Part shown: positions 3,438 through 16,684 of the stretch, piece by piece
How positions within the stretch are numbered: the stretch's first letter is position 1
How the letters are laid out: the number at the start of each line of letters is the position of its first letter
From: Christensenellaceae bacterium
Lineage (GTDB): Bacteria > Bacillota > Clostridia > Christensenellales > Borkfalkiaceae
Direction of reading: 5' to 3'
Assembly (NCBI GenBank): GCA_045648045.1
Contig: JAZRNE010000037.1
Span: 4,721 to 68,720, forward strand
DNA length: 64,000 nucleotides
Position numbers and translations under genes: made by a program
The notes under the pieces: model-generated
The model's database searches: none
Told to the model about the DNA's origin: nothing
What the model saw: the letters and a program-made list of their open reading frames with translations, nothing else

Positions 3438-4364
3438 ATGATTTTAACAATATGCCCGAACCCAAGTATTGACTGTACCATTGAATTAGACAGCCTTAAC
3501 GTGGGTATGCTTAATAAGATTGACAGCAAGGTAGAAACTTATTCGGGCAAAGCGTTAAACGTTGCAATAGGCGTTTCAAGGCTAGGGGAAAAGAGTTTTT
3601 CAACGGGCTTTATGTTTGAAAACCACGGTAGAATGTTCGAGCACGTTCTCGATAAAGAGAAGGTTGAACATAAATTCGTTTATAATCAAGGCAATGCGAG
3701 AGTTAATTATAAGATTATTGATAAACGCTCAATGCTTACCGAAATAAACGACCGTGGCGAAACGGTTGCTCGTGATAAGCAAGAAGAACTTATCAAACTC
3801 GTTAAAGAAATTGCCCCTTCTTGTGAAATTGCCGTTATGAGTGGCAGTTTACCCAAGGGTGTTAAGCCCGAATTTTACGCCGAAGTGTTGTCGGTTATTC
3901 CCAAAAACGTAAAGGTTATCGTGGACACCGAAAAGGCGAATATGTTATCCGCTATCGGTAGCCGTGAAATATTTATGGCAAAGCCCAACCTTCGCGAACT
4001 TGAAAGTTTTGCAGGCGAATCGGTCGTTGACCTTAAAGATATGTTGCGTGCGGCGCAAAAGTACATAGATTTGGGCGTTCAAAACGTTCTAGTTTCTTTG
4101 GGGGCTGACGGCGCAATACTTACCGATGGAAAAGAAAGTTATTTTTGTAAGTCAGCGTCGGTTGCAGTAAATTCTACCGTAGGCGCGGGCGATTCAATGG
4201 TCGCCGCCGCTTGCGTAGGGTTGCAAAAAGGCGTTCCGATGCACGAACTTTTAAGAATGTCTGTTGCGGCAGGCACGGCGTCGGTAACTACTAGTGGCAC
4301 GAATCTCTTTTATTTTGACAAATATAAAGAAATTTACAGTAAAATTTACTCTCAAAAAATGTAA
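3438..4364 (+). CDS. PfkB-family sugar-phosphate kinase (1-phosphofructokinase / tagatose-6-phosphate kinase type)
   Basis: N-terminus ILTICPNPSIDCT and C-terminal GAGDSMVAA motif are typical of FruK/LacC. Confidence 0.8.
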   Translation: MILTICPNPSIDCTIELDSLNVGMLNKIDSKVETYSGKALNVAIGVSRLGEKSFSTGFMFENHGRMFEHVLDKEKVEHKFVYNQGNARVNYKIIDKRSMLTEINDRGETVARDKQEELIKLVKEIAPSCEIAVMSGSLPKGVKPEFYAEVLSVIPKNVKVIVDTEKANMLSAIGSREIFMAKPNLRELESFAGESVVDLKDMLRAAQKYIDLGVQNVLVSLGADGAILTDGKESYFCKSASVAVNSTVGAGDSMVAAACVGLQKGVPMHELLRMSVAAGTASVTTSGTNLFYFDKYKEIYSKIYSQKM

Positions 4365-4388
4365 CGGAAAACGAATAAAAAGCATAAA

Positions 4389-4416
4389 CAGTCTGCAAAA
4401 TACGCAGACTGTTTTT
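4389..4416 (+). terminator. Rho-independent terminator
   Basis: cagtctgc / gcagactg 8-bp stem followed by ttttt. Confidence 0.8.
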
Positions 4417-5247
4417 ATGTATATAAATACTTTTAGGCAAATTCTTGATGAGTTTTCGGAAAAGAGAGTTAGCACGGTCGTGGGGGCGTGGGTATTCTAT
4501 TTTTTAACGGCGGTTATTCCTTTGGCATTTTTACTCGTAACGACCTTCGGCGTGTTCGGCGTTGAACTTACTGAAGACGCCGTGTCTAGATTGCCGATTG
4601 AATTTCGTTCGGCTGGCACGGCGATTGTATCCACGGCAAGGCGTGCGTCAAAGGGCGCAACGCTTTTATTCGTTTTAACCGCGGTTTATTCTTGTTCAAG
4701 ATTGCTTAATCAAATGTCAAAGGATGGCGATTATCTATATGAGAAAAAATCTTTAGGTAAACGGGGACTTTTGCGTAGAGTTTGGGCGATTTTGGCGTTG
4801 GGGGCGTTATTTGCCGTGTTTTTGCTTGCGTCCATAGTTATTGCGCTCGGTGGAAGTTTATTTGCGTTTAACTATACGGTTGGTGGCATAAAAAACCTAT
4901 TTGCAACAATCGGCGTTTGTTTGACGGTCGTTTCGTTCAGTTTCGTTATTATAATAATGTTAAATAAATTTATTTGCCCGATAAAGTTAAAGTTTAAGCA
5001 AATTGCAGTCGGGGCGATGGTTTCGCTTGCCGAAATAGTTTTAGGCACGATAGGCTTTGCGCTATATTTAAGGTTTTTTAATTCGTATAACGCTTTTTAC
5101 GGCAGTCTTGCAGGGATTATAGTTTTCTTGCTCTGGGCGTATATATTAATGTTTGGCTTGGTGTCGGGCGTGGTTGTAAATTCAATTTTGAATAAAAGAG
5201 AATTATCTTCTAAAAGCTTTCCAAAACAGATTAAGATTACAGTTTAA
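4417..5247 (+). CDS. YihY/BrkB-family integral membrane protein
   Basis: Multi-TM profile and an N-terminus FRQILDEFSEKRVSTVVGAWVFYFLTAVIPLAFL typical of YihY. Start placed at the ATG just after the upstream terminator; the start is uncertain because there is no clear SD. Confidence 0.7.
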   Translation: MYINTFRQILDEFSEKRVSTVVGAWVFYFLTAVIPLAFLLVTTFGVFGVELTEDAVSRLPIEFRSAGTAIVSTARRASKGATLLFVLTAVYSCSRLLNQMSKDGDYLYEKKSLGKRGLLRRVWAILALGALFAVFLLASIVIALGGSLFAFNYTVGGIKNLFATIGVCLTVVSFSFVIIIMLNKFICPIKLKFKQIAVGAMVSLAEIVLGTIGFALYLRFFNSYNAFYGSLAGIIVFLLWAYILMFGLVSGVVVNSILNKRELSSKSFPKQIKITV

Positions 5248-5283
5248 AAATATTAAAAATCTTTTAAAAAATTAGTAAAACAC

Positions 5284-5312
5284 TTGACACCACTTTATCA
5301 CAGTAGTATAAT
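5284..5312 (+). promoter_or_regulatory. Consensus sigma-A promoter of the aromatic amino acid operon
   Basis: TTGACA (5284-5289), 17 nt, TATAAT (5307-5312). Confidence 0.7.
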
Positions 5313-5336
5313 AAAGGAAAATTTAAGGCAAAAACT

Positions 5337-5393
5337 ATGAAAAAACTTAATTCTTACTTTTACTTTAATAACAAGTTTTCAATATCTCGTTAG
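5337..5393 (+). CDS. Candidate 18-codon leader peptide MKKLNSYFYFNNKFSISR (Tyr/Phe-rich)
   Basis: ATG preceded by aagg. The peptide contains Y-F-Y-F plus one more F. It lies between the promoter and a strong terminator upstream of aroF. Confidence 0.4.
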   Translation: MKKLNSYFYFNNKFSISR

Positions 5394-5434
5394 TGATTAC
5401 TATACGGATTGTTTTTGCGTGAAACAAGAAAACG

Positions 5435-5468
5435 AAGGCTTTGTAGTAATAACTACAAAGCCTTTTTT
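5435..5468 (+). terminator. Attenuator terminator in the aro operon leader
   Basis: Perfect 13-bp stem aaggctttgtagt / actacaaagcctt with loop aata, followed by tttt. Confidence 0.8.
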
Positions 5469-5529
5469 ATTAAACGACTAGAAAATAAAATTAAACGAAA
5501 ATTTCAATATTCGTGTTTGGAGATGCATT

Positions 5530-6543
5530 ATGATTATCGTTGTAAAAAATTCTTGCGAAGAACAACAATTCAAAAACTTAATCGACTGGGTTAAAGAATT
5601 AGGGCTAGACGTCCACGTTAGTTATGGCGAGCATTCAACCGTTTTAGGGCTTGTTGGTGATACGAGTAAGGTTGATATGGACCTTATAGGCAGTCTTGAT
5701 ATGGTCGAAAAAGTGCAACGCGTTCAAGAACCTTATAAGAACGCGAACAGAAAGTTTAACCCCGAAGATACTATTATTGATGTTGGCGGTTGCAAAATCG
5801 GCGGTGATAATTTTACCGTAATCGCAGGGCCTTGTTCGGTTGAATCAGAAGAACAAATTATAGCGGTTGCTAAGGCGGTTAAGTCGGCTGGCGCAACGCT
5901 ACTTAGGGGTGGTGCGTTCAAACCTAGAACTTCACCGTACGCTTTCCAAGGGCTTAAAGGCACGGGGATTGACCTTTTGTTAAAAGCAAAAGAAGAAACG
6001 GGTTTACCGATTGTAACCGAACTTTTGTCTGTTAGCCACATTGATTTGTTCGATAAGGTTGACGTGATTCAAATCGGTGCAAGAAATATGCAAAACGTTG
6101 AACTCTTAAAAGAAGTTGGCAAAACGGGTAAGCCTATCTTGTTAAAGCGTGGGCTTGCAAATACTTTACAAGAACTTTTAATGAGCGCTGAATATATTAT
6201 GGCGGAAGGCAATAGCAAAGTTATCCTTTGCGAAAGGGGTATAAGAACTTTTGAAACGATGACTAGAAATACGCTTGATTTATCAGCCGTTCCCGTATTG
6301 AAAGAAAAAACGCACTTGCCTATCATAATTGACCCAAGCCACGCAACGGGTGTTGCAAAATTAGTTACGCCTATGTCGCTCGCTAGCGTTGGCGCAGGTG
6401 CTGACGGGCTTATTATAGAAGTGCATAACGACCCACAACGCGCGTTGTGCGACGGTGCGCAATCGTTAAATCCCGAACAATTTTCAACGCTTATGGGTAA
6501 GGTAAACCAAATGTTACCACTCGTTAACAAAAAAATTAACTAA
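5530..6543 (+). CDS. aroF: 3-deoxy-7-phosphoheptulonate (DAHP) synthase, type I-beta, with N-terminal ferredoxin-like regulatory domain
   Basis: Core IAGPCSVESEEQ..LRGGAFKPRTSPY..DPSH matches the KDO8P/DAHPS I-beta family. The about 70-aa N-terminal extension resembles Thermotoga-type DAHPS. Confidence 0.9.
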   Translation: MIIVVKNSCEEQQFKNLIDWVKELGLDVHVSYGEHSTVLGLVGDTSKVDMDLIGSLDMVEKVQRVQEPYKNANRKFNPEDTIIDVGGCKIGGDNFTVIAGPCSVESEEQIIAVAKAVKSAGATLLRGGAFKPRTSPYAFQGLKGTGIDLLLKAKEETGLPIVTELLSVSHIDLFDKVDVIQIGARNMQNVELLKEVGKTGKPILLKRGLANTLQELLMSAEYIMAEGNSKVILCERGIRTFETMTRNTLDLSAVPVLKEKTHLPIIIDPSHATGVAKLVTPMSLASVGAGADGLIIEVHNDPQRALCDGAQSLNPEQFSTLMGKVNQMLPLVNKKIN

Positions 6544-6554
6544 CGGAAAGAGTT

Positions 6555-7412
6555 ATGAAAATAGGTATTATCGGTTTAGGTTTAATAGGCGGTTCGCTCG
6601 GAAGAGCGCTCGTGTCAAAAACGCAAGACCAAGTTTATGCGTTTGATATAAGCGATAAAGCGCTTATCGACGGTAGGTTGTTAAACGCTTACCATCATCA
6701 ACTTGACGAAAGCAATCTTGGCGAAATGGACGTGTTGATTTTGTCTTTATATCCAAACGCATTAGAAACTGCTCTTAAAAAATACTGCCCGTTATTAAAA
6801 GACGGTTGTTTGGTAATGGATTGTTGCGGTAATAAGCGTAGGGTAGTAAAGCAAATGCAATCGCTTTCAAAAGAATTTCCAAATCTTGATTTTATTAGCG
6901 CGCATCCTATGGCAGGAAGGGAATTTTCGGGCGTAAATCACTCTACGGCAACTTTGTTCGACAGGGCGTCGATGATTTTAGTACCCGTTAAAGCGGATAT
7001 AAGAAAGATTGCTCAAATGAAACAATACTTTTTGTCTATCGGGTTTGGTTCGGTCGTTATTACGACTGCGGAAAAACACGATGAAATTATTGCTTTTACT
7101 TCGCAACTAGCGCACCTTGTTTCAAGTTCATACATAAAAAGCCAAACGGCAATGCAATTTATGGGCTTTTCGGCCGGTAGTTTTAGGGATATGACTAGGG
7201 TGGCAAGGCTTTCGCCCGAAATGTGGGCGCAACTCACTATTGATAACGCCGATTTTTTGGTTAATGAAATTGACTCTATCGTGAATAGCCTTAACGAATA
7301 TAAGAAAGCGTTGCAAGACGGCGATTTTGATAATATGCGCGCTTTACTTGCCGACGGTAACGAGAAAAAACTCTTATCTGAAAAAATGAGAAGGAGTAAG
7401 ATAATTGATTAA
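6555..7412 (+). CDS. tyrA: Prephenate dehydrogenase
   Basis: Rossmann motif IGIIGLGLIGGSLG, HPMAG motif and operon context. Confidence 0.85.
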   Translation: MKIGIIGLGLIGGSLGRALVSKTQDQVYAFDISDKALIDGRLLNAYHHQLDESNLGEMDVLILSLYPNALETALKKYCPLLKDGCLVMDCCGNKRRVVKQMQSLSKEFPNLDFISAHPMAGREFSGVNHSTATLFDRASMILVPVKADIRKIAQMKQYFLSIGFGSVVITTAEKHDEIIAFTSQLAHLVSSSYIKSQTAMQFMGFSAGSFRDMTRVARLSPEMWAQLTIDNADFLVNEIDSIVNSLNEYKKALQDGDFDNMRALLADGNEKKLLSEKMRRSKIID

Positions 7413-8451
7413 TACGATTAAAAAAATAAAAGTAAACGCGTCTGAAAGTTACGAAGTCGTTATCGGGCGTGGACTATTAGACAATACGGGTGAAATTATT
7501 AAAAAGGTTGTGCCGATTTGTAAAATTGCACTAATTACCGACGATACGGTTAATAATTTACACGCAGAAGTTGTTGAAAAATCGCTTAAAGAAACGGGGT
7601 ATAGTGTCGTTAAATTCGTTTTTCCGCACGGTGAGCAAAGTAAAAACTTAAAAGTTTACGCGGAAATTTTAGAGTTCCTTGCTGAAAATCAATTAACCCG
7701 TGGCGACGCGGTAGTTGCGCTCGGCGGTGGTGTTGTAGGCGATATGGCAGGCTTTGTTTCGGCAACCTATTTAAGGGGTGTAAAATTCGTTCAAATACCA
7801 ACCACCTTGCTTGCGCAAGTTGATTCATCCGTTGGTGGAAAAACTGCGGTAGACTTAATGCACGGTAAGAATTTAGTCGGTGCATTTTATCAACCAAAAG
7901 TCGTTTTATGCGACGCTAACGCGCTTGAAACCTTGCCTAAAACCGTGTTTGACGACGGTATGGGCGAAATTGCAAAGTACGCGATTTTAGATGAAAAAGT
8001 TTTCAATCTTATTAATAACGGCTATGAAGATATTACCGATTTAATATATCTTTGCGTTGATTACAAAAGATACGTCGTTGAAAACGACGAGTTTGAAAGC
8101 GGTATGAGAAAGTTGCTTAATTTAGGGCACACCCCCGCGCACGGAATTGAACTCTTATCCAACTATGAAATATCACACGGGAAAGCCGTTGCGATGGGGC
8201 TTAAAATAATAATCGACGCATCTTTTAAGCAAGGATATATTGATGACGAAACGTATAAAAATGCAAAGTCTATTATTGAAAAATGCGTTAGCGAAACTGA
8301 AAATCCTTATCAATTAGACAAGGTATGTAAGGCGTGTGTTAACGATAAAAAGCGTAGCGGAAACGCCATCGCTTTAACGATGGTTTTCGGTATAGGCGAT
8401 TGCCGTTCGGTAAGCGTTCAAATAGATGAACTTTGGGGGTATTTAAGTTGA
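7405..8451 (+). CDS. aroB: 3-dehydroquinate synthase
   Basis: GGGVVGDMAGF, VDSSVGGKT and HGKAVAMG motifs. TTG start 8 nt after aaggag. Confidence 0.9.
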   Translation: MINTIKKIKVNASESYEVVIGRGLLDNTGEIIKKVVPICKIALITDDTVNNLHAEVVEKSLKETGYSVVKFVFPHGEQSKNLKVYAEILEFLAENQLTRGDAVVALGGGVVGDMAGFVSATYLRGVKFVQIPTTLLAQVDSSVGGKTAVDLMHGKNLVGAFYQPKVVLCDANALETLPKTVFDDGMGEIAKYAILDEKVFNLINNGYEDITDLIYLCVDYKRYVVENDEFESGMRKLLNLGHTPAHGIELLSNYEISHGKAVAMGLKIIIDASFKQGYIDDETYKNAKSIIEKCVSETENPYQLDKVCKACVNDKKRSGNAIALTMVFGIGDCRSVSVQIDELWGYLS

Positions 8452-9641
8452 TAGCAAAAGTAGAAAGCGCTTATCTTCAAGGCGAAATAAAAGCAATACC
8501 GTCAAAGTCTTACGCTCATAGAATAGCAATTTGCAACTATATTGCAAGCGGTGCGCTTTCAGGTGGTTGCGATAACTTCGTTTCAAACGACATTAAAGCA
8601 ACGCTCGATTGCCTTGAAAATTTAAGTAAAGGCAACACGGTGCTTGACGTGGGCGAATCGGGTTCAACGCTTAGGTTTATGTTGCCACTTTGCGCAGTCT
8701 TGGGGGGCCGGTACTCGTTTATTTGCCACGGCAAATTGTTAGAGCGCCCCAACGACGAATTGTTTTCGGTGATGCGCGCGCACGGGGTAAGCGTTGAGCA
8801 AACTGATAAAATCTATATCGACGGCAAATTGAGTTGTGGAAAGTTTAGTTTGCGTGGGGATATAAGTTCGCAATATATTTCAGGTTTGTTGATGGCGTTA
8901 CCTATTCTTAAAGGGGATAGCGAAATTATTTTAACGACACCGCTATGTTCTGTGCCATACGTTGAAATTACCCTAGAAGTGTTAAAAAGTTTCGGCGTTA
9001 AAATTGAGCGAACGAAAAACGGATTTAAGATTTTAGGTAATCAAAAATATCAAGGCGGAATTCGTGCCGAAGGCGACTGGTCTAACGTGGCGTTCTTTTT
9101 AGTTGGCGGTGCAGTTAACGGAAACGTTTGCATTTCGGGCGTAAATCCCGATAGCGTGCAAGGCGATAAGTTTATTTTGGATATTTTAAGGCTTGCCGGC
9201 GTTAATTTCACTATTGAAAACGACTGTGTTAAAGTTAATAAGAGCAAAGTTCAAGCGTTTGAGTTTTCGGCAAAAGATTGCCCTGATTTAGTGCCGATAG
9301 CGTCAGTTTTGGCGGCTTATTCGGACGGAAAGAGCGTTATTAAAGACGTTGAAAGGTTAAAGATAAAAGAAAGCGATAGAATTTTGAGCACTATTGAAAT
9401 GCTTACTGCGTTTGGCGTAAAGGCTGAAAGCGACGGAAAGAGTTTAATCGTTTACGGTGGTGAGATTGTTGGCGGTGCGGTTGATTCGTTTAACGACCAT
9501 AGATTGACGATGGCTTCTGCCATACTTGCTTTGGGTGCGAAAGGCAGTTCGGTTTTAAGACGAGCGGAAGCGATAAATAAGTCGTATCCCACCTTTTTTG
9601 AAGATTATGAAAAACTCGGAGGAGTTGTTGAATATGTTTAA
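8433..9641 (+). CDS. aroA: 3-phosphoshikimate 1-carboxyvinyltransferase (EPSP synthase)
   Basis: PSKSYAHR, GESGSTLRF, DHRLTMA. Exact start uncertain (an alternative in-frame TTG lies at 8448). Confidence 0.9.
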   Translation: MGVFKLIAKVESAYLQGEIKAIPSKSYAHRIAICNYIASGALSGGCDNFVSNDIKATLDCLENLSKGNTVLDVGESGSTLRFMLPLCAVLGGRYSFICHGKLLERPNDELFSVMRAHGVSVEQTDKIYIDGKLSCGKFSLRGDISSQYISGLLMALPILKGDSEIILTTPLCSVPYVEITLEVLKSFGVKIERTKNGFKILGNQKYQGGIRAEGDWSNVAFFLVGGAVNGNVCISGVNPDSVQGDKFILDILRLAGVNFTIENDCVKVNKSKVQAFEFSAKDCPDLVPIASVLAAYSDGKSVIKDVERLKIKESDRILSTIEMLTAFGVKAESDGKSLIVYGGEIVGGAVDSFNDHRLTMASAILALGAKGSSVLRRAEAINKSYPTFFEDYEKLGGVVEYV

Positions 9642-10710
9642 TGATAAACAGTTTTCGGTGTTTAACGGAAGAAAACTGCGCGTGGAAATTTTCGGTGCGT
9701 CGCACGCCCAAGAAATAGGCGTTATCGTAAACGGGCTAGACGGTGAAACGGCGGATTTTGAAGAGTTAGAAAAGTTTATGGCTAGGCGCAAGCCGAAGAA
9801 AACCGCTTATTCAACTAAAAGATTAGAAGACGATAAAGTGATAGTTGAAAAAGGGTTTGATGGGCAAACTTTTTCGGGCGAGTTTAAGGCGGTTATAAAA
9901 AATAACAGTCAAAGAAGTAGCGACTATAATAACGTTGTGAAAACGCCAAGACCTTCGCACGCTGACTTCGTTGCGTGGAGTAAGTACGGTGACGGGTTTG
10001 ATTATCGTGGCGGTGGTAAGTTTTCAGGCAGGTTGACAGCGCCTATGTGCATAGCGGGTGGCGTTGCAAAGCAAATCCTTGAAAAATTGGGCGTAAAAAT
10101 CAACGCGTACGTATCTCAAATAGGTACTGTTAAGGGAGAGAGTTATAAAGATTTAGGCGCGGATATTTGCGTTGGTAGTTTAGACGAGAATTTCCCGTTG
10201 CTAGACGAAGCCTTTAAGGAAGATATGTTTAAGACTATTGAAGACGCGCGTACGAACGGCGATTCGGTAGGCGGTATTATAGAGTGCGTAGTAGAAGGCG
10301 TGCCAGTGGGCGTGGGCGAGTATATGTTTGATAGTTTAGAAAGCGTTATCTCGCAACTTGCATTTGCAGTTCCCGCAGTAAAGGGCATTGAGTTCGGTGC
10401 AGGGTTTGATATCGTTAAGATGCGCGGAAGCGACGCTAACGACGCGTTTTATTACGACGGCGAAAGGGTAAAGACTAAAACGAATAACAACGGCGGAATT
10501 AACGGTGGGTTGGCAAACGGTATGCCTATAACGTTTAGGGTTGCTATTAAGCCGACGCCAAGTATTGCAAAAGAACAAGACACGGTAGATTTAACAAAAA
10601 AAGAAAACGTAAAATTAAAAATAGAAGGACGACACGATTCGTGCATCGTCCCAAGGGCCGTGCCGGTAATTGAAGCGATTACGGCGCTTGCGATTTACGA
10701 TAGTTTATAA
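9634..10710 (+). CDS. aroC: Chorismate synthase
   Basis: FGASHA, RPSHAD, GRHDSC motifs. Start chosen at the ATG 11 nt after ggagg and overlaps the aroA stop. Confidence 0.9.
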   Translation: MFNDKQFSVFNGRKLRVEIFGASHAQEIGVIVNGLDGETADFEELEKFMARRKPKKTAYSTKRLEDDKVIVEKGFDGQTFSGEFKAVIKNNSQRSSDYNNVVKTPRPSHADFVAWSKYGDGFDYRGGGKFSGRLTAPMCIAGGVAKQILEKLGVKINAYVSQIGTVKGESYKDLGADICVGSLDENFPLLDEAFKEDMFKTIEDARTNGDSVGGIIECVVEGVPVGVGEYMFDSLESVISQLAFAVPAVKGIEFGAGFDIVKMRGSDANDAFYYDGERVKTKTNNNGGINGGLANGMPITFRVAIKPTPSIAKEQDTVDLTKKENVKLKIEGRHDSCIVPRAVPVIEAITALAIYDSL

Positions 10711-10719
10711 GGTGATATT

Positions 10720-11865
10720 ATGAATTTAGAAGAAATAAGAACGAAAATTGACAATGTTGACGATAAAATTGCAACGCTTTACGCAGAGAGAATGGGACTT
10801 GTCAAACAAGTAGTTGAAGCAAAAAAACAAACGGGCAAAGCGGTTAACGACCCTGAAAGGGAAAAGAAAATTCTTTTAAGAGTTGCTGATTTGGTTGAAG
10901 AAGAACAACAAGTATACTTAAAGCGCGTGTTTGAAACTATTTTTGAAACGAGCAAAGCATATCAAACGATGAGTGCTGAAATGCAATCGGAAACGGGCGA
11001 TAAGATTAAAGGCGCAATATTAAAAGGCGAACTTAAATTCCCCGTAAAAGCAAAAGTTGCTTGCCAAGGTGTTGCAGGGGCGTATTCGGGGATTGCTGCG
11101 GACAAGTTGTTTGAATTTGCAGACGTTACCTATTTTAAGAATTTCGACGGGGTTTTCCAAGCGGTTGAAAAGGGCTTTTGCAAATACGGTGTGTTGCCGA
11201 TTGAAAACAGTTCCGCAGGTTCAGTAAATCAGGTTTACGACCTTATGAAAGAACATAAGTTCTATATCGTAAGAAGCGTTCGCCTTTCAGTTTCGCACAA
11301 TTTGGTGGTTAATAAGGACGTTAAAAAAGAAGATATTAAAGAAATTTATTCGCACGAACAAGCGTTAACGCAATGCAAGAAATATCTTGAACAATATAAA
11401 AATGCAACTATTATCGCTTGCCCGAACACCGCGGTAGCGGCGCGTACGGTAGCCGAAAGCGGTAGAAAAGACGTCGCTGCAATTTGTTCTAGGGAATGCG
11501 CGGAACTTTACGGTTTGAAACTTTTAGAAACCAACGTGCAAGATAGCGACAATAACTATACTAGATTTATTTTAATCACCAAAGATTTAGAGTTCTATCA
11601 GGGCGCTGACAAAATTAGTATTATGACGACGCTTCCGCAAAACGCGCCGGGCAGTCTTAACAAGTTGTTGTCAAAGTTCTCTAATTTAGGGATAAACTTA
11701 ACCAAACTTGAATCACGCCCGATTGTAGGCTCAAGTTTTGAATTTATGTTCTATTTTGACTTTAATTGTGATATAAAGCAAAAAGCCGTGCAAAATTTGC
11801 TTTGTGAACTTGATAATTCAACCGAACAATTTACCTTCCTTGGTGCATACGGAGAAATTATATAA
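10720..11865 (+). CDS. pheA: Bifunctional chorismate mutase / prephenate dehydratase (P-protein)
   Basis: N-terminal CM_2 helix domain (IRTKIDNVDDKI..ERMGLV). Followed by a PDT domain (ENS.AGSV, TRF) and a C-terminal ACT domain (ESRP). Confidence 0.85.
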   Translation: MNLEEIRTKIDNVDDKIATLYAERMGLVKQVVEAKKQTGKAVNDPEREKKILLRVADLVEEEQQVYLKRVFETIFETSKAYQTMSAEMQSETGDKIKGAILKGELKFPVKAKVACQGVAGAYSGIAADKLFEFADVTYFKNFDGVFQAVEKGFCKYGVLPIENSSAGSVNQVYDLMKEHKFYIVRSVRLSVSHNLVVNKDVKKEDIKEIYSHEQALTQCKKYLEQYKNATIIACPNTAVAARTVAESGRKDVAAICSRECAELYGLKLLETNVQDSDNNYTRFILITKDLEFYQGADKISIMTTLPQNAPGSLNKLLSKFSNLGINLTKLESRPIVGSSFEFMFYFDFNCDIKQKAVQNLLCELDNSTEQFTFLGAYGEII

Positions 11866-11866
11866 T

Positions 11867-13114
11867 ATGCAAAAATTTGGGCTTATCGGTAAAACCTTAA
11901 AACACAGTTTTTCAAAAAAAATACATCCGTATTTTGCCGATTACACTTACGACTTGATTGAAGTTCAACCTGAAAATTTATCGTCGTTTATAAAAGAAAA
12001 CGATTACGATGGGTTCAACGTTACTATTCCATATAAAAAGGACGTTATTGAATTTCTTGACGTGGTTGACGAAAGAGCGAAAAAGATAGGCGCAGTCAAC
12101 ACGGTTGTTCGCCGTAACGGAAAACTTTACGGATATAATACCGATTTTGACGGAATGGTTTATGCGTTAAATAGCGCGGGTATAAACTTAAAAGATAAAG
12201 TGGTTTTAATACTCGGTAGTGGTGGAACTTCTAACACCGCAAAGGCGGTAGCGGAGAGTTTAGGCGCATCAAGCATTAAAAAATTATCGCGCACGGGTGA
12301 GATTAATTATCAAAATTATAGCACGCTAGCAGGTGATGCGCAAGTTATTATAAACACCACCCCCGTCGGAATGTATCCCGAAAATTATTCGTGCTTGATT
12401 GATTTGAAAAACTTTGCTAACTTGTCAGGGGTGTTAGACGTTGTGTATAACCCTGCTCTTACCATGCTATTGAAACAAGCGAAAGATTTGGGCGTGCCGT
12501 ATGCTAACGGTCAACCTATGCTCGTTACTCAAGCCAAAGTAGCGTCCGAATTGTTTTTAGATAAAAAGCATTCGGATAAACTTATTGAAGAAGTTATCGG
12601 CAAACTCAAAATGGAAAATCAAAACCTTGTTTTAGTTGGTATGCCCGGTTCGGGAAAGTCAACGATAGGCAGGGCGGTGGCGGAACTTTTAAATAAAGAG
12701 TTTATAGATACCGACCAAGTTATCGAGCAAAAAGAAAATAAAAGCATACCGCAAATTTTTGCAGAATTTGGCGAAGATTATTTTAGAAAGATTGAGCGTG
12801 AAGTTTTATCGGAAGTTGGCAAACTTTCAGGCAAGGTTATTTCTACGGGTGGTGGAATCGTTAAAAACGCTGATAATTATTTTTATCTTAAACAAAACGG
12901 CGTTATAATTTGGATTGATAGGGATATTGAACTTTTGTCTTGTGAAAATCGCCCCTTGTCAAAAGATTTAGACGCAGTTAAAAAACTGTATAACGAACGA
13001 AAAGATAAGTACGCATTCTTTGCTGATGAAAAAATTTCAAACGACGGCTCTTTAGATAGTGCCGTAAAGGAGACGATAAAGGTTTATGAAAATTTTAGTT
13101 ATAAACGGACCTAA
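11867..13114 (+). CDS. aroE: Fused shikimate dehydrogenase (AroE) - shikimate kinase (AroK)
   Basis: N-terminal half has SKKIH..NVTIPYK..GAVNT..GSGGTS (AroE). C-terminal half has LVGMPGSGKSTIGR..DTD..GGGIV (AroK P-loop). Start at ATG 11867, 2 nt after the pheA stop. Confidence 0.85.
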   Translation: MQKFGLIGKTLKHSFSKKIHPYFADYTYDLIEVQPENLSSFIKENDYDGFNVTIPYKKDVIEFLDVVDERAKKIGAVNTVVRRNGKLYGYNTDFDGMVYALNSAGINLKDKVVLILGSGGTSNTAKAVAESLGASSIKKLSRTGEINYQNYSTLAGDAQVIINTTPVGMYPENYSCLIDLKNFANLSGVLDVVYNPALTMLLKQAKDLGVPYANGQPMLVTQAKVASELFLDKKHSDKLIEEVIGKLKMENQNLVLVGMPGSGKSTIGRAVAELLNKEFIDTDQVIEQKENKSIPQIFAEFGEDYFRKIEREVLSEVGKLSGKVISTGGGIVKNADNYFYLKQNGVIIWIDRDIELLSCENRPLSKDLDAVKKLYNERKDKYAFFADEKISNDGSLDSAVKETIKVYENFSYKRT

Positions 13115-13514
13115 TTTGAATATGTTGGGCGTTAGAGAAAAAGAACTTTACGGCTCGAAAAGTTACAAATCGCTCGTTGAACTTATTAAAAAATCGGCAA
13201 AAGAAAAAAGAGTAAAAGTTAAGTGTTTTCAATCAAATTACGAAGGCGCAATAGTTACGGCTATTCAAAAGGCATATAAAAAATATGACGGAATAGTAAT
13301 CAACCCAGGCGCATATACGCATACTAGCGTTGCTATTTTAGACGCGCTTAAATCGGTGAATATCCCGACGGTTGAAGTGCATATTACCGAAGTTAACGAA
13401 AGGGAAGATTTTAGGAAAATTTCTTTCGTTAAAGAATTTGCATTTAAGGCTATTACGGGCAAAGGATTTGACGGTTATCTTTTAGCAATGGATGAAATAA
13501 TCAACCTAAAATAA
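13086..13514 (+). CDS. aroQ: Type II 3-dehydroquinate dehydratase
   Basis: ILVINGPNLNMLG.RE...YG, NPGAYTHTS, EVHI.N motifs. Confidence 0.9.
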   Translation: MKILVINGPNLNMLGVREKELYGSKSYKSLVELIKKSAKEKRVKVKCFQSNYEGAIVTAIQKAYKKYDGIVINPGAYTHTSVAILDALKSVNIPTVEVHITEVNEREDFRKISFVKEFAFKAITGKGFDGYLLAMDEIINLK

Positions 13515-13540
13515 AATTTAATTAAATTTACAAACAAAAA

Positions 13541-13566
13541 ACTCCCGCAGTCAGCAGGAGTTTTTA
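13541..13566. terminator. Bidirectional terminator between aroQ and the convergent XRE gene
   Basis: actcc..ggagt hairpin flanked by an A-run and a T-run. Confidence 0.6.
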
Positions 13567-13806
13567 TTTTATTTCTTGTTCTAAATTGCTAAATTCGTCG
13601 GTGTTGAAAAACTCAATCAAGGTTATACCGAATCCATCGCAAAGCATTTTTAGTGTGGATATGCCGGGGTTAACGCTTTTTCCGTACAAGATGTTTTTTA
13701 TCGAAGACGGCGGAACACCAGATTCCATCGCGAGTTTGTGTATAGACATATTTTTTTCTTCGAGCAAAATTAATATTCTATTTTTAACTGCTTTGTAAAC
13801 GCTCAT
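13564..13806 (-). CDS. XRE-family helix-turn-helix transcriptional regulator
   Basis: HTH_3-type sequence MSIHKLAMESGVPPSSIKNILYGK.VNPGISTLKMLCDGFGITLIEFF. Start taken at the second Met. Confidence 0.8.
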   Translation of the reverse strand: MSVYKAVKNRILILLEEKNMSIHKLAMESGVPPSSIKNILYGKSVNPGISTLKMLCDGFGITLIEFFNTDEFSNLEQEIK

Positions 13807-13852
13807 ACAAATTCCCACACCTATATTATAGACTAATTATAGCCTAATATGC

Positions 13853-13897
13853 TTGACAAAGTGGGCTATATATGATACTATCGTCTATATATAGCCC
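13853..13897 (+). promoter_or_regulatory. Promoter of the LRR lipoprotein gene overlapped by a perfect 11-bp inverted repeat (candidate XRE operator)
   Basis: TTGACA (13853-58), 17 nt, TACTAT (13876-81). GGGCTATATAT (13863-73) and ATATATAGCCC (13887-97) are exact reverse complements. Confidence 0.55.
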
Positions 13898-13912
13898 AAA
13901 GGAGATTTTGAT

Positions 13913-15139
13913 ATGAAGGGTTTAATAAAAAAATGTTTATTATGTGGGCTTGCATCGGTTATGGTGTTTTGCACAACGGCGTGCAATAGTTCTCTTTTTG
14001 GGAAAGAAAAACACGAACACGAATATTCTTGGTATCTCGTAAAAGTGCCAACCTGTTCAAAAGCGGGGTTGATGGAAGGTATTTGTGAGTGTGGCGAAAA
14101 AACGTATAACGACTTGCAAGCAACTGGGCACGATTATATAAACGGTGTTTGTGGCGTGTGTGGGCAAAAAGAAGAAGATACGTTACAAAAAGTTGAACCA
14201 AATCAAGTAGTGGGGTTGACTTTATCGGGCGTGTATGAAAAATATAAGAATTTCGAAGACTGTACTTTTGAAACTTTCAAGAACAATTTAAGTGGAAACT
14301 ATCTTTCTAATTTAAAAATTGACGCTTTAGGCGTTTTGCATTGTGTTTATGAATACGGTTCAGAATTTAGTGCAGATATTATACTTCCGTCAATGAAAGT
14401 TGATTTTGAGTTGCCGGAAACAACAAATTTGAAAAATATTCTAAAAATAGGCTTTGAAGATAATAATTTCGTATGCACGCTCGTTGACGGCACGTATATA
14501 GAAATAGGTGAAATTGAAGGGATGACACTTTCGCCGCAAAAATTCGTCAGGTCGATTTTTATTAACAAAGAAAATCAATTAGGTGTCGTGTTTTCTGACG
14601 ATACGGTTAAAGTAATAGGTAAAATTGCCGACGTTGGCACGGCGATTAACGGTGCGCAACTTACTTATAAAAAGATTGATGGAAAACAAGAATATAAGGT
14701 TTGGTCTTGGGTAGATGATGACACCACGAAGATTGAAATTCCTGCAACGCATTGTGGCTTACCTGTAACTGAAATAGCGGACTATGCTTTTAAGGACAAT
14801 AAAAAAATAACTGAAATAGTTTTTAGTGAAAATATGAAGTCGGTTGGGCGCTATGCGTTTTCAGGATGTAGCGAATTAATCACCGTAAAATTTAATCAAG
14901 GTTTGAGAGAAATAGAGAATTTTGCGTTTTCAGAGTGTGGTAAATTGCAAAGAGTAATTATTCCAAGCGCGGTAGAAACTTGTGCGATAAGCGCTTTTTA
15001 TGGAACGAACTGCACGATTTACGTTGATATAGAAACAAAACCGTCGGGTTGGGATGCGAACTGGAGTGGCGATAATAATAGGATTTACTGGAAAGGCGAG
15101 TGGGAACTTATCAACGGCGTACCTACACCGAAAAATTAA
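13913..15139 (+). CDS. Lipoprotein with a Cys-rich N-terminal module and C-terminal BspA-type leucine-rich repeats
   Basis: Signal peptide with lipobox (VFCTTAC-N). C-terminal repeats of the type I.IP..V..I...AF..C..L..V. Confidence 0.7.
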   Translation: MKGLIKKCLLCGLASVMVFCTTACNSSLFGKEKHEHEYSWYLVKVPTCSKAGLMEGICECGEKTYNDLQATGHDYINGVCGVCGQKEEDTLQKVEPNQVVGLTLSGVYEKYKNFEDCTFETFKNNLSGNYLSNLKIDALGVLHCVYEYGSEFSADIILPSMKVDFELPETTNLKNILKIGFEDNNFVCTLVDGTYIEIGEIEGMTLSPQKFVRSIFINKENQLGVVFSDDTVKVIGKIADVGTAINGAQLTYKKIDGKQEYKVWSWVDDDTTKIEIPATHCGLPVTEIADYAFKDNKKITEIVFSENMKSVGRYAFSGCSELITVKFNQGLREIENFAFSECGKLQRVIIPSAVETCAISAFYGTNCTIYVDIETKPSGWDANWSGDNNRIYWKGEWELINGVPTPKN

Positions 15140-15241
15140 ATTAAAATAAATAAAAGCGCTTGGATTGTGGATTAGTAAATAGCGTTCCGCAGTTCAAGCG
15201 TTTTTTATTTTAAAAACGTTATAAATATATGGTAAAAATAG

Positions 15242-15270
15242 TTGACTTTATCACTTTACCGTGCTAAAAT
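15242..15270 (+). promoter_or_regulatory. Sigma-A promoter of the yerC-his operon
   Basis: TTGACT, 17 nt, TAAAAT. Confidence 0.6.
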
Positions 15271-15300
15271 GTTAAAAGATTAAAGTGTAGGGAGTTGGCT

Positions 15301-15585
15301 ATGGAAAAATTCAGCATTAAAGAGTATGATGATTTTTTTAACGCAATACTTAAACTAAACAACGTTGAAGAGTGTAGAAAGTTTTTTGAAGACGTTTGCA
15401 CTATTAAAGAATTACAAGATATTTCGCAACGCCTTGAAGTTGCAAAACTTTTAAAAGACGGGCAAAATTACCAAGAAGTTTCTAAAAAAACGGGCGCTAG
15501 CACGGCTACTATTAGCAGAGTTAATAAATGCTTAAATTACGGTAGCGGTGGTTACGGCTTGGTTATCGACGGTAAAGGAGAATAA
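15301..15585 (+). CDS. yerC: YerC/YecD-family TrpR-like DNA-binding protein (putative histidine regulator)
   Basis: ELQDISQRLEVAKLL..G..Y.E....GASTATISRV.K.L.YG is the family signature. ATG lies 6 nt after gggag. Confidence 0.8.
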   Translation: MEKFSIKEYDDFFNAILKLNNVEECRKFFEDVCTIKELQDISQRLEVAKLLKDGQNYQEVSKKTGASTATISRVNKCLNYGSGGYGLVIDGKGE

Positions 15586-15589
15586 AAAA

Positions 15590-16684
15590 GTGGACGGCAA
15601 ATTTATTACGGGTAAAGATAAAACGCTTTCTTCACTCTGCGCGCTTTACGCAAAGTGGGGCTTTAAGCAATACAAGATGAGCAAGTTTGAGCAATACGAC
15701 CTTTACGCTAAAAATAAAGACTTTTTGATTTCTGAAAACGTTATCACTTTTACCGATACTGACGGCAGATTAATGGCGCTTAAACCCGACGTTACCTTGT
15801 CGATTATTAAAAACGGTAAGGACGGCGAAGATATTTCAAAAGTTTATTATAACGAACACGTGTATAGGGTGTCTAAAGGTACGGGCTCGTTTAAAGAGTT
15901 TACGCAAGTCGGATTAGAGTGCGTTGGTAAACTTGACGATTACGCGCTTTCCGAAGTTATTTTTCTCGCAAGCAAAAGTTTAGAAAACGTTTCAAGCGAT
16001 TACGTTTTGGACCTTTCACACTTGGGTATCGTTAACGGCGTTTTAGACGCTTTTGATATTTCCGAATCGGGCAAGAAAAAAATCGTTGAGTTTTTAGGCG
16101 AGAAAAACGCGCACGGGGTAGGCGGTGTTTGTGAAAGTGAAGGGCTTAATAAAGAGCAAACTGAAACCGTTAAAAAATTAGTTACTCTTTACGGGGGGAA
16201 AGAAAAGGTTTTTTCAGAGTTGGAAAAAATCAACGTAAACGAGCAGACCGATATTGCAATTAAGCAACTCAAAAACGTGCTTGGCGCTTTATCAGCACTT
16301 GGCGTTGGCGATAAAATCAACATAGATTTTTCAGTTGTAAGCGATACGAATTACTACAACGGTTTGGTGTTTAAGGGGTTCATCAGCGGTATACCCGTGG
16401 CGATTATTTCGGGTGGGCAGTACGATAATCTTATGCAAAAGTTCAAAAGGCGCGACCGCGCGATAGGTTTTGCAGTTTATCTTGACGAACTTGAAAAATT
16501 GATAAACGCTAAGCCTGAATTTGACGTAGACGTCGTGCTTGAATACGCTGACGAAAAGAACGTTGTTAAAATTAATCAAGCGGTTAAGAGTGTTATCGAC
16601 GGTGGCGAAAGCGTGTTTGCTTGCGTTAAAGCACCCTTGAATTTGAAATATAAAAGGCTCGTTCAGTTGAAGGAGATTAAGTAA
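15590..16684 (+). CDS. hisZ: ATP phosphoribosyltransferase regulatory subunit
   Basis: HisRS-like catalytic core without an anticodon domain, immediately upstream of short-form hisG. GTG start 9 nt after aaaggag. Confidence 0.8.
   Translation: MDGKFITGKDKTLSSLCALYAKWGFKQYKMSKFEQYDLYAKNKDFLISENVITFTDTDGRLMALKPDVTLSIIKNGKDGEDISKVYYNEHVYRVSKGTGSFKEFTQVGLECVGKLDDYALSEVIFLASKSLENVSSDYVLDLSHLGIVNGVLDAFDISESGKKKIVEFLGEKNAHGVGGVCESEGLNKEQTETVKKLVTLYGGKEKVFSELEKINVNEQTDIAIKQLKNVLGALSALGVGDKINIDFSVVSDTNYYNGLVFKGFISGIPVAIISGGQYDNLMQKFKRRDRAIGFAVYLDELEKLINAKPEFDVDVVLEYADEKNVVKINQAVKSVIDGGESVFACVKAPLNLKYKRLVQLKEIK

Follow-up and report, generated by a model that had tools for sequence, protein, structure and literature searches.

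The window analyzed here, a 64-kb stretch of contig JAZRNE010000037.1 from a Christensenellaceae bacterium, carries directly upstream of aroF a short open reading frame (ORF) rich in Tyr and Phe codons, followed by an intrinsic terminator. Judged from its sequence and from modeled folding, this element is likely a ribosome-mediated Tyr/Phe leader-peptide transcription attenuator of the shikimate/Tyr/Phe operon that begins with aroF. A Tyr/Phe-sensing attenuator at this site had been proposed in the initial annotation of the window, and conservation, structure, and modeling together lend the proposal good support. The leader-terminator arrangement, seen in some 65–70 of 81 genomes of related Clostridia, is very probably real and an apparently undescribed example of a well-known type of amino acid-sensing switch, and the leaders found in Clostridia probably represent a large new sequence family of this known kind of regulator. 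The parts of the element exist, are conserved, and covary, and computation shows its alternative pairings to be mutually exclusive. We infer that the ORF is translated, that ribosomes stall at its Tyr and Phe codons, that a second ribosome or some other occupant is needed on the 5' leader, and that polymerase pauses after the hairpin termed P1.

Leader Region Upstream of aroF

The promoter of the leader matches the consensus at 12/12 positions, the sole such match in a consensus scan of positions 4000–16,000, and it sits between the upstream YihY-like gene and the leader ORF (Table 1). Transcription would start at approximately 5319–5320, giving a 17-nucleotide (nt) 5' untranslated region (UTR) with a Shine-Dalgarno (SD) sequence. 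The ORF comprises 18 codons, five of which specify the aromatic residues Y7, F8, Y9, F10, and F14. The terminator that follows is the best-ranked terminator-like site in the same 12 kb, with a predicted stability of -19.2 kcal/mol; 13 perfect pairs (5435–5447/5452–5464) and a G5434-U5465 pair form its stem, closed by a 4-nt loop and followed by TTTTTT. A competing antiterminator is possible because ATTACTATA (5396–5404) is complementary to TGTAGTAAT (5442–5450) through eight Watson-Crick pairs and one G-U pair, with extension by G5406-U5440 and G5407-C5439. The promoter, leader ORF, terminator, and 9-bp antiterminator of the initial annotation are thus all present at the coordinates given there.

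Table 1. Features of the putative attenuator and of the operon it precedes; positions are counted from the first nucleotide of the window.
Feature	Position	Strand	Description	Basis
Promoter of the leader-aro transcript	5284..5312	+	Sigma-70 type; TTGACA 5284-5289, 17-nt spacer, TATAAT 5307-5312	Consensus scan
Shine-Dalgarno region	5325..5335	+	Weak SD, AAGG 5325-5328, 8 nt before ATG; overlaps 5' strand of helix P0	Sequence reading
Leader ORF	5337..5393	+	ATG 5337 to TAG 5391-5393; encodes MKKLNSYFYFNNKFSISR	Sequence and homologous ORFs in relatives
Putative regulatory codon run	5355..5366	+	TAC TTT TAC TTT (Y7 F8 Y9 F10)	Conserved in clade
Extra Phe codon	5376-5378	+	F14	Sequence
Hairpin P1	5384..5409	+	Stop codon (5391-5393) in 5' strand; antiterminator strand in loop and 3' strand	RNAalifold consensus
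Antiterminator, 5' strand	5396..5407	+	ATTACTATA plus GG; pairs with 5439-5450 (upper terminator 5' arm and loop)	Sequence, folding
Conserved U-rich segment	5410..5422	+	TGTTTTTGCGTGA; provides 3' strand of P0 (5411-5418)	15-sequence alignment
Intrinsic terminator (attenuator)	5434..5471	+	14-bp stem, loop AATA, T-tract 5466-5471	Terminator scan, covariation
Shikimate/Tyr/Phe operon	5530..13514	+	aroF, tyrA, aroB, aroA, aroC, pheA (chorismate mutase-prephenate dehydratase), aroE-aroK fusion, aroQ	NCBIfam profiles

Conservation of the Tyr/Phe Leader in Clostridia

Relatives were collected by a genome scan with AroF as the query, which gave 80 loci (designated L) at 63–88% identity. Most belong to metagenome-assembled genomes (MAGs) of Christensenellaceae, Oscillospiraceae, and other Clostridia, and the cultured relatives include Oscillibacter valericigenes (L064), Angelakisella massiliensis (L040), and Flintibacter faecis (L062). 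A leader was counted where an ATG-initiated short ORF within 300 nt upstream of aroF held the required number of Tyr/Phe among six consecutive residues. On the sense strand, at least five of six were reached in 49 of 81 loci and at least four of six in 66 of 81. The control counts were 0/81 and 2/81, respectively, on the reverse complement, and 0/81 at both thresholds inside aroF. The test had been set beforehand, and its outcome bears out the expectation that the Tyr/Phe ORF is conserved in relatives.

The enrichment fits the end products of the operon. Phe plus Tyr is the most enriched amino acid pair (49 loci), followed by a pair with 14. Representative leader peptides from the relatives are MKFNHAYFYFYFNRKVLISR, MKKQNLSVYAYYFYFSYEVA, MKNMIISRISNAYYYYYGYLR, and MSTFTFAAEYRYFSFTYYFGKAYFGLAENECV. 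Across 68 leader peptides, Phe accounts for 18.8% and Tyr for 16.2% of residues versus 4.3% and 3.5% in the long ORFs of the window, a sum of 35% against a background of 7.8%, with a median of 4 Tyr and 4 Phe per peptide. No enrichment of Trp was seen across these 68 peptides, which matches the presence of tyrA and pheA, and the absence of trp genes, in the operon. Peptide length ranges from 14 to 60 aa, and both the residues outside the Tyr/Phe run and the position of the stop codon vary even among close relatives.

A terminator lies 3' of the leader ORF in 68 loci. Antiterminator pairing was scored in 65 loci; three in which the ORF or terminator had been mis-picked and one whose ORF call was truncated were left out. 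The segment after the run pairs with the terminator 5' arm and loop at a mean z of -1.73 relative to dinucleotide shuffles, reaching p<=0.05 in 46% of the loci. The 5' edge of this strand usually falls 12–20 nt past the final Tyr/Phe codon, immediately beyond the reach of a ribosome stalled there. The best upstream partner of the strand, segment 1, is usually found directly 5' of the run and thereby places the run in the loop of the 1:2 helix; this pairing attains p<=0.05 in 23% of loci. Modeled antiterminator occupancy in L016, L018, L021, and L071 peaks with the ribosome on the run and drops toward the stop codon, and in L038 occupancy on the run equals the value without a ribosome and drops only near the stop codon.

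Two modes of leader initiation are apparent. In nine loci (L015–L019, L025, L047, L054, and L060) the leader ATG is exactly 6 nt after the -10 hexamer and has no SD; the hexamer ends at position 2318, with the ATG at 2325, in L016 (2289–2387), and the corresponding positions in L018 (2239–2339) are 2267 and 2274. This spacing indicates that these nine ORFs are probably leaderless. Seven loci (L031, L055, L056, L063, L066, L072, and L079) showed neither a Tyr/Phe leader within 700 nt of aroF nor an Rfam family; at these loci another gene may precede aroF in the operon. The aroF-plus-leader arrangement also occurs in MAGs labeled Flexilinea (Chloroflexota) and Lentisphaerae/Oligosphaeraceae (L046, L051, and L075), which would be explained either by operon and leader having been transferred horizontally together or by mis-binning of the contigs.

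Covariation in the Alignable Clade

The leader of the window aligns with those of L001–L011 and of L082, L084, and L093, a clade of 15 sequences. The last three came from a metagenome pattern scan for clade members, in which 3 of 19 matches were real. An nhmmer profile of the clade found no family member beyond these 15, and leaders therefore appear to evolve fast. A promoter of the cTTGACA/TATAAT type stands at an equal distance from the leader ATG in 12/12 clade relatives inspected (TATACT in L011). Columns of the Tyr/Phe run are invariant throughout the clade, save for the third positions of the Tyr codons, where C and T alternate. Directly 3' of the run, TTTAATA (5364–5370, alignment columns 59–65) is invariant in 15/15 sequences. 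In the -1 frame this motif supplies TAA, and also TAG if a G follows, stops that may catch ribosomes slipping on the U-rich run.

Covariation of the terminator and antiterminator had been suggested as a check on the element. In the alignment, 95.5% of terminator cells are paired and seven pairs show compensatory changes. The antiterminator is kept in 90.4% of cells, versus 26–57% when its partner strand is slid, with compensatory change at only two pairs; 10–20 of 500 shuffles were equally good. In the window, the antiterminator becomes the minimum-energy fold of the truncated transcript once the 5' side of P1 is masked.

Two further helices emerge from the clade. Hairpin P1, which holds the antiterminator strand, is paired in 89.6% of cells with compensatory change at four pairs, and is proposed to act as an anti-antiterminator and possibly as a pause hairpin. 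The leader stop codon is inside P1 in 10/15 sequences and upstream of it in the other five (L001, L003, L005, L006, and L082), where the P1 nucleotides are still conserved. This observation suggests that P1 is selected as RNA rather than as codons. In the long-range helix P0, the SD/AUG region GCAAAAAC (5328–5335) pairs with the conserved GUUUUUGC (5411–5418) directly after P1. The P0 duplex of the window reaches -10.0 kcal/mol against -5.6 kcal/mol for shuffles (p=0.017). Over the clade, P0 is better than shuffles in 8/15 sequences, is paired in 79% of cells, and covaries in L008, L009, L010, L011, L082, and L084; in L001, L005, and L006 its partner falls in codons 1–7 instead. Taken jointly, P0, P1, and the terminator have 89.5% of cells paired and 12 pairs with double changes, and 0/500 shuffles were as good.

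The U-rich segment right after P1 has an invariant TTTG with nearly invariant flanks in the 15 sequences. By analogy, it is a candidate RNA polymerase pause site, as P1 followed by UUGUUUUUGCG has the hairpin-plus-U-run arrangement of a pause signal. The analogy is to the B. subtilis yxjB leader, whose translation gains time from NusG-dependent pausing at a T-rich non-template stretch (PMC6851288). Outside the clade, L016 has a small hairpin directly after the run (2370–2384), then UAGUUUUGCG, which the scan flagged as terminator-like. Its layout matches P1 plus UUGUUUUUGCG and suggests a family-wide pause-like element.

If segment 2 has to pair with both segments 1 and 3, and segment 3 with segment 4, a repeated palindrome is to be expected. 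Such a repeat is seen in the near-identical 12-nt palindromes at the apex of P1 (TAGTGATTACTA, 5391–5402) and of the terminator (TAGTAATAACTA, 5444–5455).

Several other candidates were set aside. A five-segment chain, in which UUACU of the run pairs with AGUAA of P1, has just five AU-rich pairs and the wrong regulatory polarity. Helices J (GUUUUC:GAAAAC) and P2 (UUGUUU:AAACAA), both predicted in the window, are A/U-run pairings that the clade does not conserve. The F14 codon is well placed to open P1 as a key sensing codon, but it is in frame in only 5–7 of the 15 clade members. The window and L001 have an open +1-frame ORF that extends from the run across the terminator, but in L003 a 1-nt indel brings in a TGA that closes it, and the ORF is thus not conserved.

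An inserted sequence separates the attenuator from aroF in part of the clade. In L005 (2164–2460), 2.3 tandem copies of a 127-nt repeat (GATTGTGAAATGTTTCGCAATACTGCGTTACTGCTTAGTGTTT...) lie between the attenuator terminator and aroF. The repeat occupies the same interval in L003, L004, L006, L007, and L010, with the leader shifted 300–430 nt upstream. The window lacks this repeat, which has the look of a small mobile or miniature inverted-repeat transposable element (MITE)-like element.

Modeled Switching

To follow individual helices, probabilities were computed on a transcript truncated before the terminator 3' arm, with ribosome-sized masks. An equilibrium score that counted any upstream pairing of the terminator 5' arm was too noisy in this AU-rich clade, and helix-specific probabilities were used instead. 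In the window, the antiterminator probability is 0.10 for the ribosome-free transcript and 0.21 once a ribosome sits on the final Phe of the run; additional occupancy of the SD/AUG raises it to 0.68, whereas a ribosome at the stop codon gives 0.00. The same modeling gave a similar pattern in L004, L008, L010, L011, L084, and L093. In the early-stop loci L003, L005, and L006, the antiterminator probability is ~0 without a ribosome and rises to 0.75–0.97 with any ribosome on the ORF.

These results revise the initial annotation in two respects. Occlusion of the antiterminator by a ribosome at the stop codon holds in the window, where the modeled probability falls to zero; it does not hold as a general rule, given the five clade sequences whose stop precedes P1. 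A two-structure switch had also been described. Its two pairings exist, but the description was incomplete, since P1 sequesters the antiterminator strand and P0 clamps the ribosome-binding site.

As we picture it, the operon would be tuned to the supply of charged tRNA-Tyr and tRNA-Phe, with the leader ORF translated while RNA polymerase heads for the terminator. When Tyr and Phe are plentiful, a ribosome would reach the stop codon within P1 and cover the antiterminator strand (5396–5404); the terminator would then form and transcription would halt before aroF. On a ribosome-free leader, 5328–5335 would pair with GUUUUUGC as P0, stacked on P1, an arrangement that would lock the antiterminator strand, turn off further leader translation, and again lead to termination. 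When Tyr or Phe is scarce, ribosomes would be held up and queue along the YFYF codons and the 5' leader. P0 would thereby be blocked and the weak P1 would yield, allowing 5396–5407 to pair with 5439–5450, so that the terminator 5' arm would be taken and polymerase would read into aroF. A pause at the U-rich segment after P1 would give the ribosome time to act.

Strength of the Attenuator Assignment

A number of observations weigh against this interpretation. At least four of six consecutive Tyr/Phe are reached by 42 of the 1452 short ORFs (2.9%) in the window. The antiterminator duplex, at -9.3 kcal/mol versus -7.3 kcal/mol for dinucleotide shuffles of the same AU-rich segment, is not distinguished from them (p=0.18), and it spans only the upper half of the terminator stem. 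Its strand begins 25–28 nt past the run in the clade, compared with 12–20 nt elsewhere in the family. A stop codon ahead of P1 in a third of the clade (5/15) means that stop-codon occlusion is not a universal off-switch. In the model, a ribosome stalled on YFYF alone would not melt P1, the antiterminator requiring that the SD/AUG be occupied too, and the footprint sizes of the masks are themselves assumptions. Since the full-length RNA invariably adopts the terminator fold at equilibrium (P=0.97), regulation of any kind has to be kinetic, and in Bacillus subtilis transcription outruns translation, which would make the timing harder if it is valid here. As the ORF and the antiterminator of the window are each unremarkable alone, it is their combination and their conservation in relatives that carry the case.

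Abundance of such ORFs and the unexceptional antiterminator energy would be expected if the hairpin were a constitutive terminator, a 5'-UTR stability element, or the terminator of the upstream YihY-like gene, with the ORF a chance frame in AT-rich DNA. The terminator scan agrees to the extent that it found no other terminator from the end of that gene at 5247 up to 5434. We nevertheless regard this explanation as very unlikely, because the ORF, its frame, its ATG, and the Tyr/Phe run are conserved in 49–66 of 81 loci versus 0–2 of 81 in the controls, the antiterminator pairing is enriched family-wide, and a 12/12 promoter separates the upstream gene from the ORF; in L013, L021, and L024 the upstream gene even carries its own terminator before the leader promoter. 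A sensor other than the ribosome, with the ORF incidental, is also very unlikely, though T-boxes or RNA-binding proteins are common on amino acid operons of Firmicutes. Such a sensor could be a T-box-like RNA, an aromatic amino acid riboswitch, or a TRAP-like protein that binds UAY/UUU triplets. Conservation of P1 and the U-rich segment as nucleotides, not codons, would fit it, and for Enterococcus aroFBC-tyrA riboswitches for aromatic amino acids have been put forward as candidates in the upstream region (PMC4448216). Against it, Rfam scans detected no T-box or other family in either the window or 20 related loci, and leaders beyond the 15-member clade are not alignable as RNA by nhmmer. These unalignable leaders keep an in-frame ATG, an SD or leaderless start, and a run of irregular order (YYFYF, FYFDYYYFF), which argues that a codon property rather than a binding motif is conserved. 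Variation within the run is likewise confined to synonymous third positions.

The two 12-bp palindromes TAGTRATTACTA (5391–5402 and 5444–5455) raise a further alternative, in which they are DNA operators for a dimeric repressor acting by roadblock or looping and the hairpins are a by-product. Both are conserved in most clade members, and they lie ~52 bp apart, roughly five helical turns. However, the palindromes are confined to the 15-sequence clade whereas the leader and terminator are family-wide, and the many G-U wobbles and compensatory changes in both stems keep RNA pairing, not DNA sequence; the repetition is, moreover, what alternate pairing of segments 1 to 4 would predict. We consider operators extremely improbable, and assign a similarly slight chance to the ORF being a functional hydrophobic micro-protein that is co-expressed with the operon instead of serving as a sensor. 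The latter idea draws on the conservation of an aromatic-rich peptide and on some leader peptides that act in trans in other bacteria (PMC7298713). It is countered by the lack of conservation of peptide length (14–60 aa), of sequence outside the run, and of stop position, even in close relatives, and by the invariable location of the ORF ahead of a terminator with an overlapping alternative pairing. Ribosome-mediated attenuation thus remains our preferred explanation of the element.

A more ambitious combination of claims is held only tentatively and is, taken as a whole, rather doubtful. It would make the window the founding member of a large family of dual Tyr/Phe attenuators, spread through gut and rumen Clostridia in SD-led and leaderless versions. 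The decision would depend on whether the 5' leader is occupied or not as polymerase leaves the post-P1 pause, rather than on ribosome-RNA polymerase coupling, and P0 would act as an anti-SD clamp that restricts the leader to one round of translation.

Comparison with Known Attenuators

The initial annotation had noted no T-box, and Rfam agrees. A gathering-threshold scan of the whole window detected no T-box (RF00230) or other family at the leader, a permissive scan of 5200–5600 gave no T-box at E<=10, and a scan of the 20 related loci, including those in which no leader was found, returned no T-box and no other family. The sole weak matches in these scans were terminator-driven; among them, Phe_leader (RF01859) scored 22.5 bits (E=0.17) in the window, versus a gathering threshold of 55 bits. 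No array of the TRAP type (~9–11 (G/U)AG triplets, 2–3 nt apart) was evident on reading 5320–5470, for which no formal scan was made.

The element displays the hallmarks of trpL/pheL/hisL-type leaders, namely an ORF with a usable start, a cluster of end-product codons, a terminator, and, at the family level, an antiterminator that overlaps it. As in E. coli pheL-pheA and in trpL/hisL, a short ORF has clustered codons for the product of the pathway, the hairpins 1:2, 2:3, and 3:4 are exclusive with the intrinsic terminator last, the stop codon of the window sits where a ribosome terminating there would cover segment 2, and a hairpin followed by a U-rich stretch could act as a pause. Differences from E. 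coli pheL are also clear. Tyr and Phe codons alternate in the window, where sensing of two amino acids is proposed, and the element would control the whole common pathway from DAHP synthase instead of pheA alone. Family-wide, segment 1 is 5' of the codon run, with the run in the loop; the window's clade has an extra helix onto the SD of its own leader; and the host is a Firmicute of the class Clostridia.

Leader peptides have been described or predicted upstream of aroF in other lineages. A review (PMC11802643, citing Neshat 2014) reports the aroR leader peptide (Phe-Tyr-Phe) upstream of aroF in C. glutamicum, where read-through rises as ribosomes stall at these codons and the reported response is to Phe and not Tyr. 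By that description, aroR resembles the present leader in lying directly upstream of an operon that starts with a DAHP synthase gene, and differs in belonging to an actinobacterium; the Clostridia family has longer Tyr/Phe runs. The DAHP synthase of the Clostridia family, unlike that of C. glutamicum, is Thermotoga-like with an N-terminal ferredoxin-like (FXD) domain. The uORFC-13-1 motif (Brewer et al. 2021, PMC8632094) is a predicted upstream ORF (uORF) attenuator found exclusively upstream of aroF. It is known as a prediction from 24 representatives, limited to Acholeplasma and unassigned environmental sequences, and comprises a promoter, a ribosome-binding site, a start codon, a U-run encoding "at least one" Phe (Tyr codons are unmentioned), and one further base-paired element, immediately before an intrinsic terminator (PMC8632094). 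Compared by description only, it shares with our element a Phe-codon uORF directly upstream of aroF and then an intrinsic terminator; no Rfam family answering to that description matched within 5200–5600.

Leader peptides also have precedents among Firmicutes, including the Lactococcus leu/phe leader (RF01743). Reports of amino acid leader peptides in Firmicutes go back to Naville and Gautheret 2010 (PMC2965389), with His leaders ahead of hisS/hisZ paralogues of Bacilli, and a Leu-rich attenuator of ilv-leu is reported for Staphylococcus aureus (PMC5794164). The His and ilv-leu leaders likewise combine an amino acid-specific ORF and a terminator where T-boxes are usual, but they sense other amino acids and control other operons in other lineages; none of these Firmicute leaders (RF01743 included) matched the window leader in Rfam. 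For the leaderless members of our family, the nearest parallel is in mycobacteria, whose Cys-sensing, leaderless polycysteine short ORFs are described in a preprint (bioRxiv 10.1101/834739). The nine probably leaderless members resemble these ORFs, unlike the window leader with its SD and 17-nt 5' UTR; the amino acid and the phylum differ as well. To our knowledge, leaderless sensing ORFs are not known in Clostridia.

The initial annotation had described leader-peptide attenuation as classic in Proteobacteria. It is not unprecedented in Firmicutes or for aroF. A literature search found no description of a Tyr/Phe leader family in Clostridia, although its coverage was incomplete and absence is thus unproven.

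The Downstream Operon

Profile matches over 5530–13514 corroborate the shikimate operon with tyrA and pheA that had been predicted downstream. The aroF, aroB, aroA, aroC, pheA, and aroQ products match NCBIfam models above the curated cut-offs; tyrA (E 7e-44) and aroE-aroK (E 6e-50) give strong matches below theirs. A single ORF at 11804–13114 joins shikimate dehydrogenase to shikimate kinase. Just 3' of aroQ, a symmetrical hairpin with A- and T-run flanks (13537–13565) probably ends the operon in both directions.

AroF carries a regulatory FXD domain (PF18152) at residues 1–67 and a PF00793 domain in Pfam, and it matches the Thermotoga maritima DAHP synthase (1rzm/3pg9) over its full length. 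This homology supports the suggestion that the attenuator is layered on a DAHP synthase with a feedback-regulatory N-terminal domain.

Biological Implications

In Firmicutes, textbooks assign the control of aromatic amino acid operons to T-boxes or TRAP. A wide range of Clostridia, including Christensenellales, Oscillospirales, and others, very probably relies instead on a translated Tyr/Phe leader in the proteobacterial style. The attenuator would act on the first committed enzyme of the pathway, atop allosteric control via the FXD domain. The mechanism class is long established, and leader peptides of aroF are known or predicted elsewhere, so that a known theme is extended here, not overturned. 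The family also gives a label to a region that recurs, unannotated, across hundreds of genomes from gut and rumen, and its cultured members (L064, L040, and L062) could let the timing of transcription and translation in Clostridia be probed. If the decision does rest on occupancy of the 5' leader, this would explain how ribosome-sensing attenuation can work in Firmicutes, where transcription is thought to outrun translation. The significance of the family would grow should experiments bear out the leaderless variants and the model of occupancy and pause timing.

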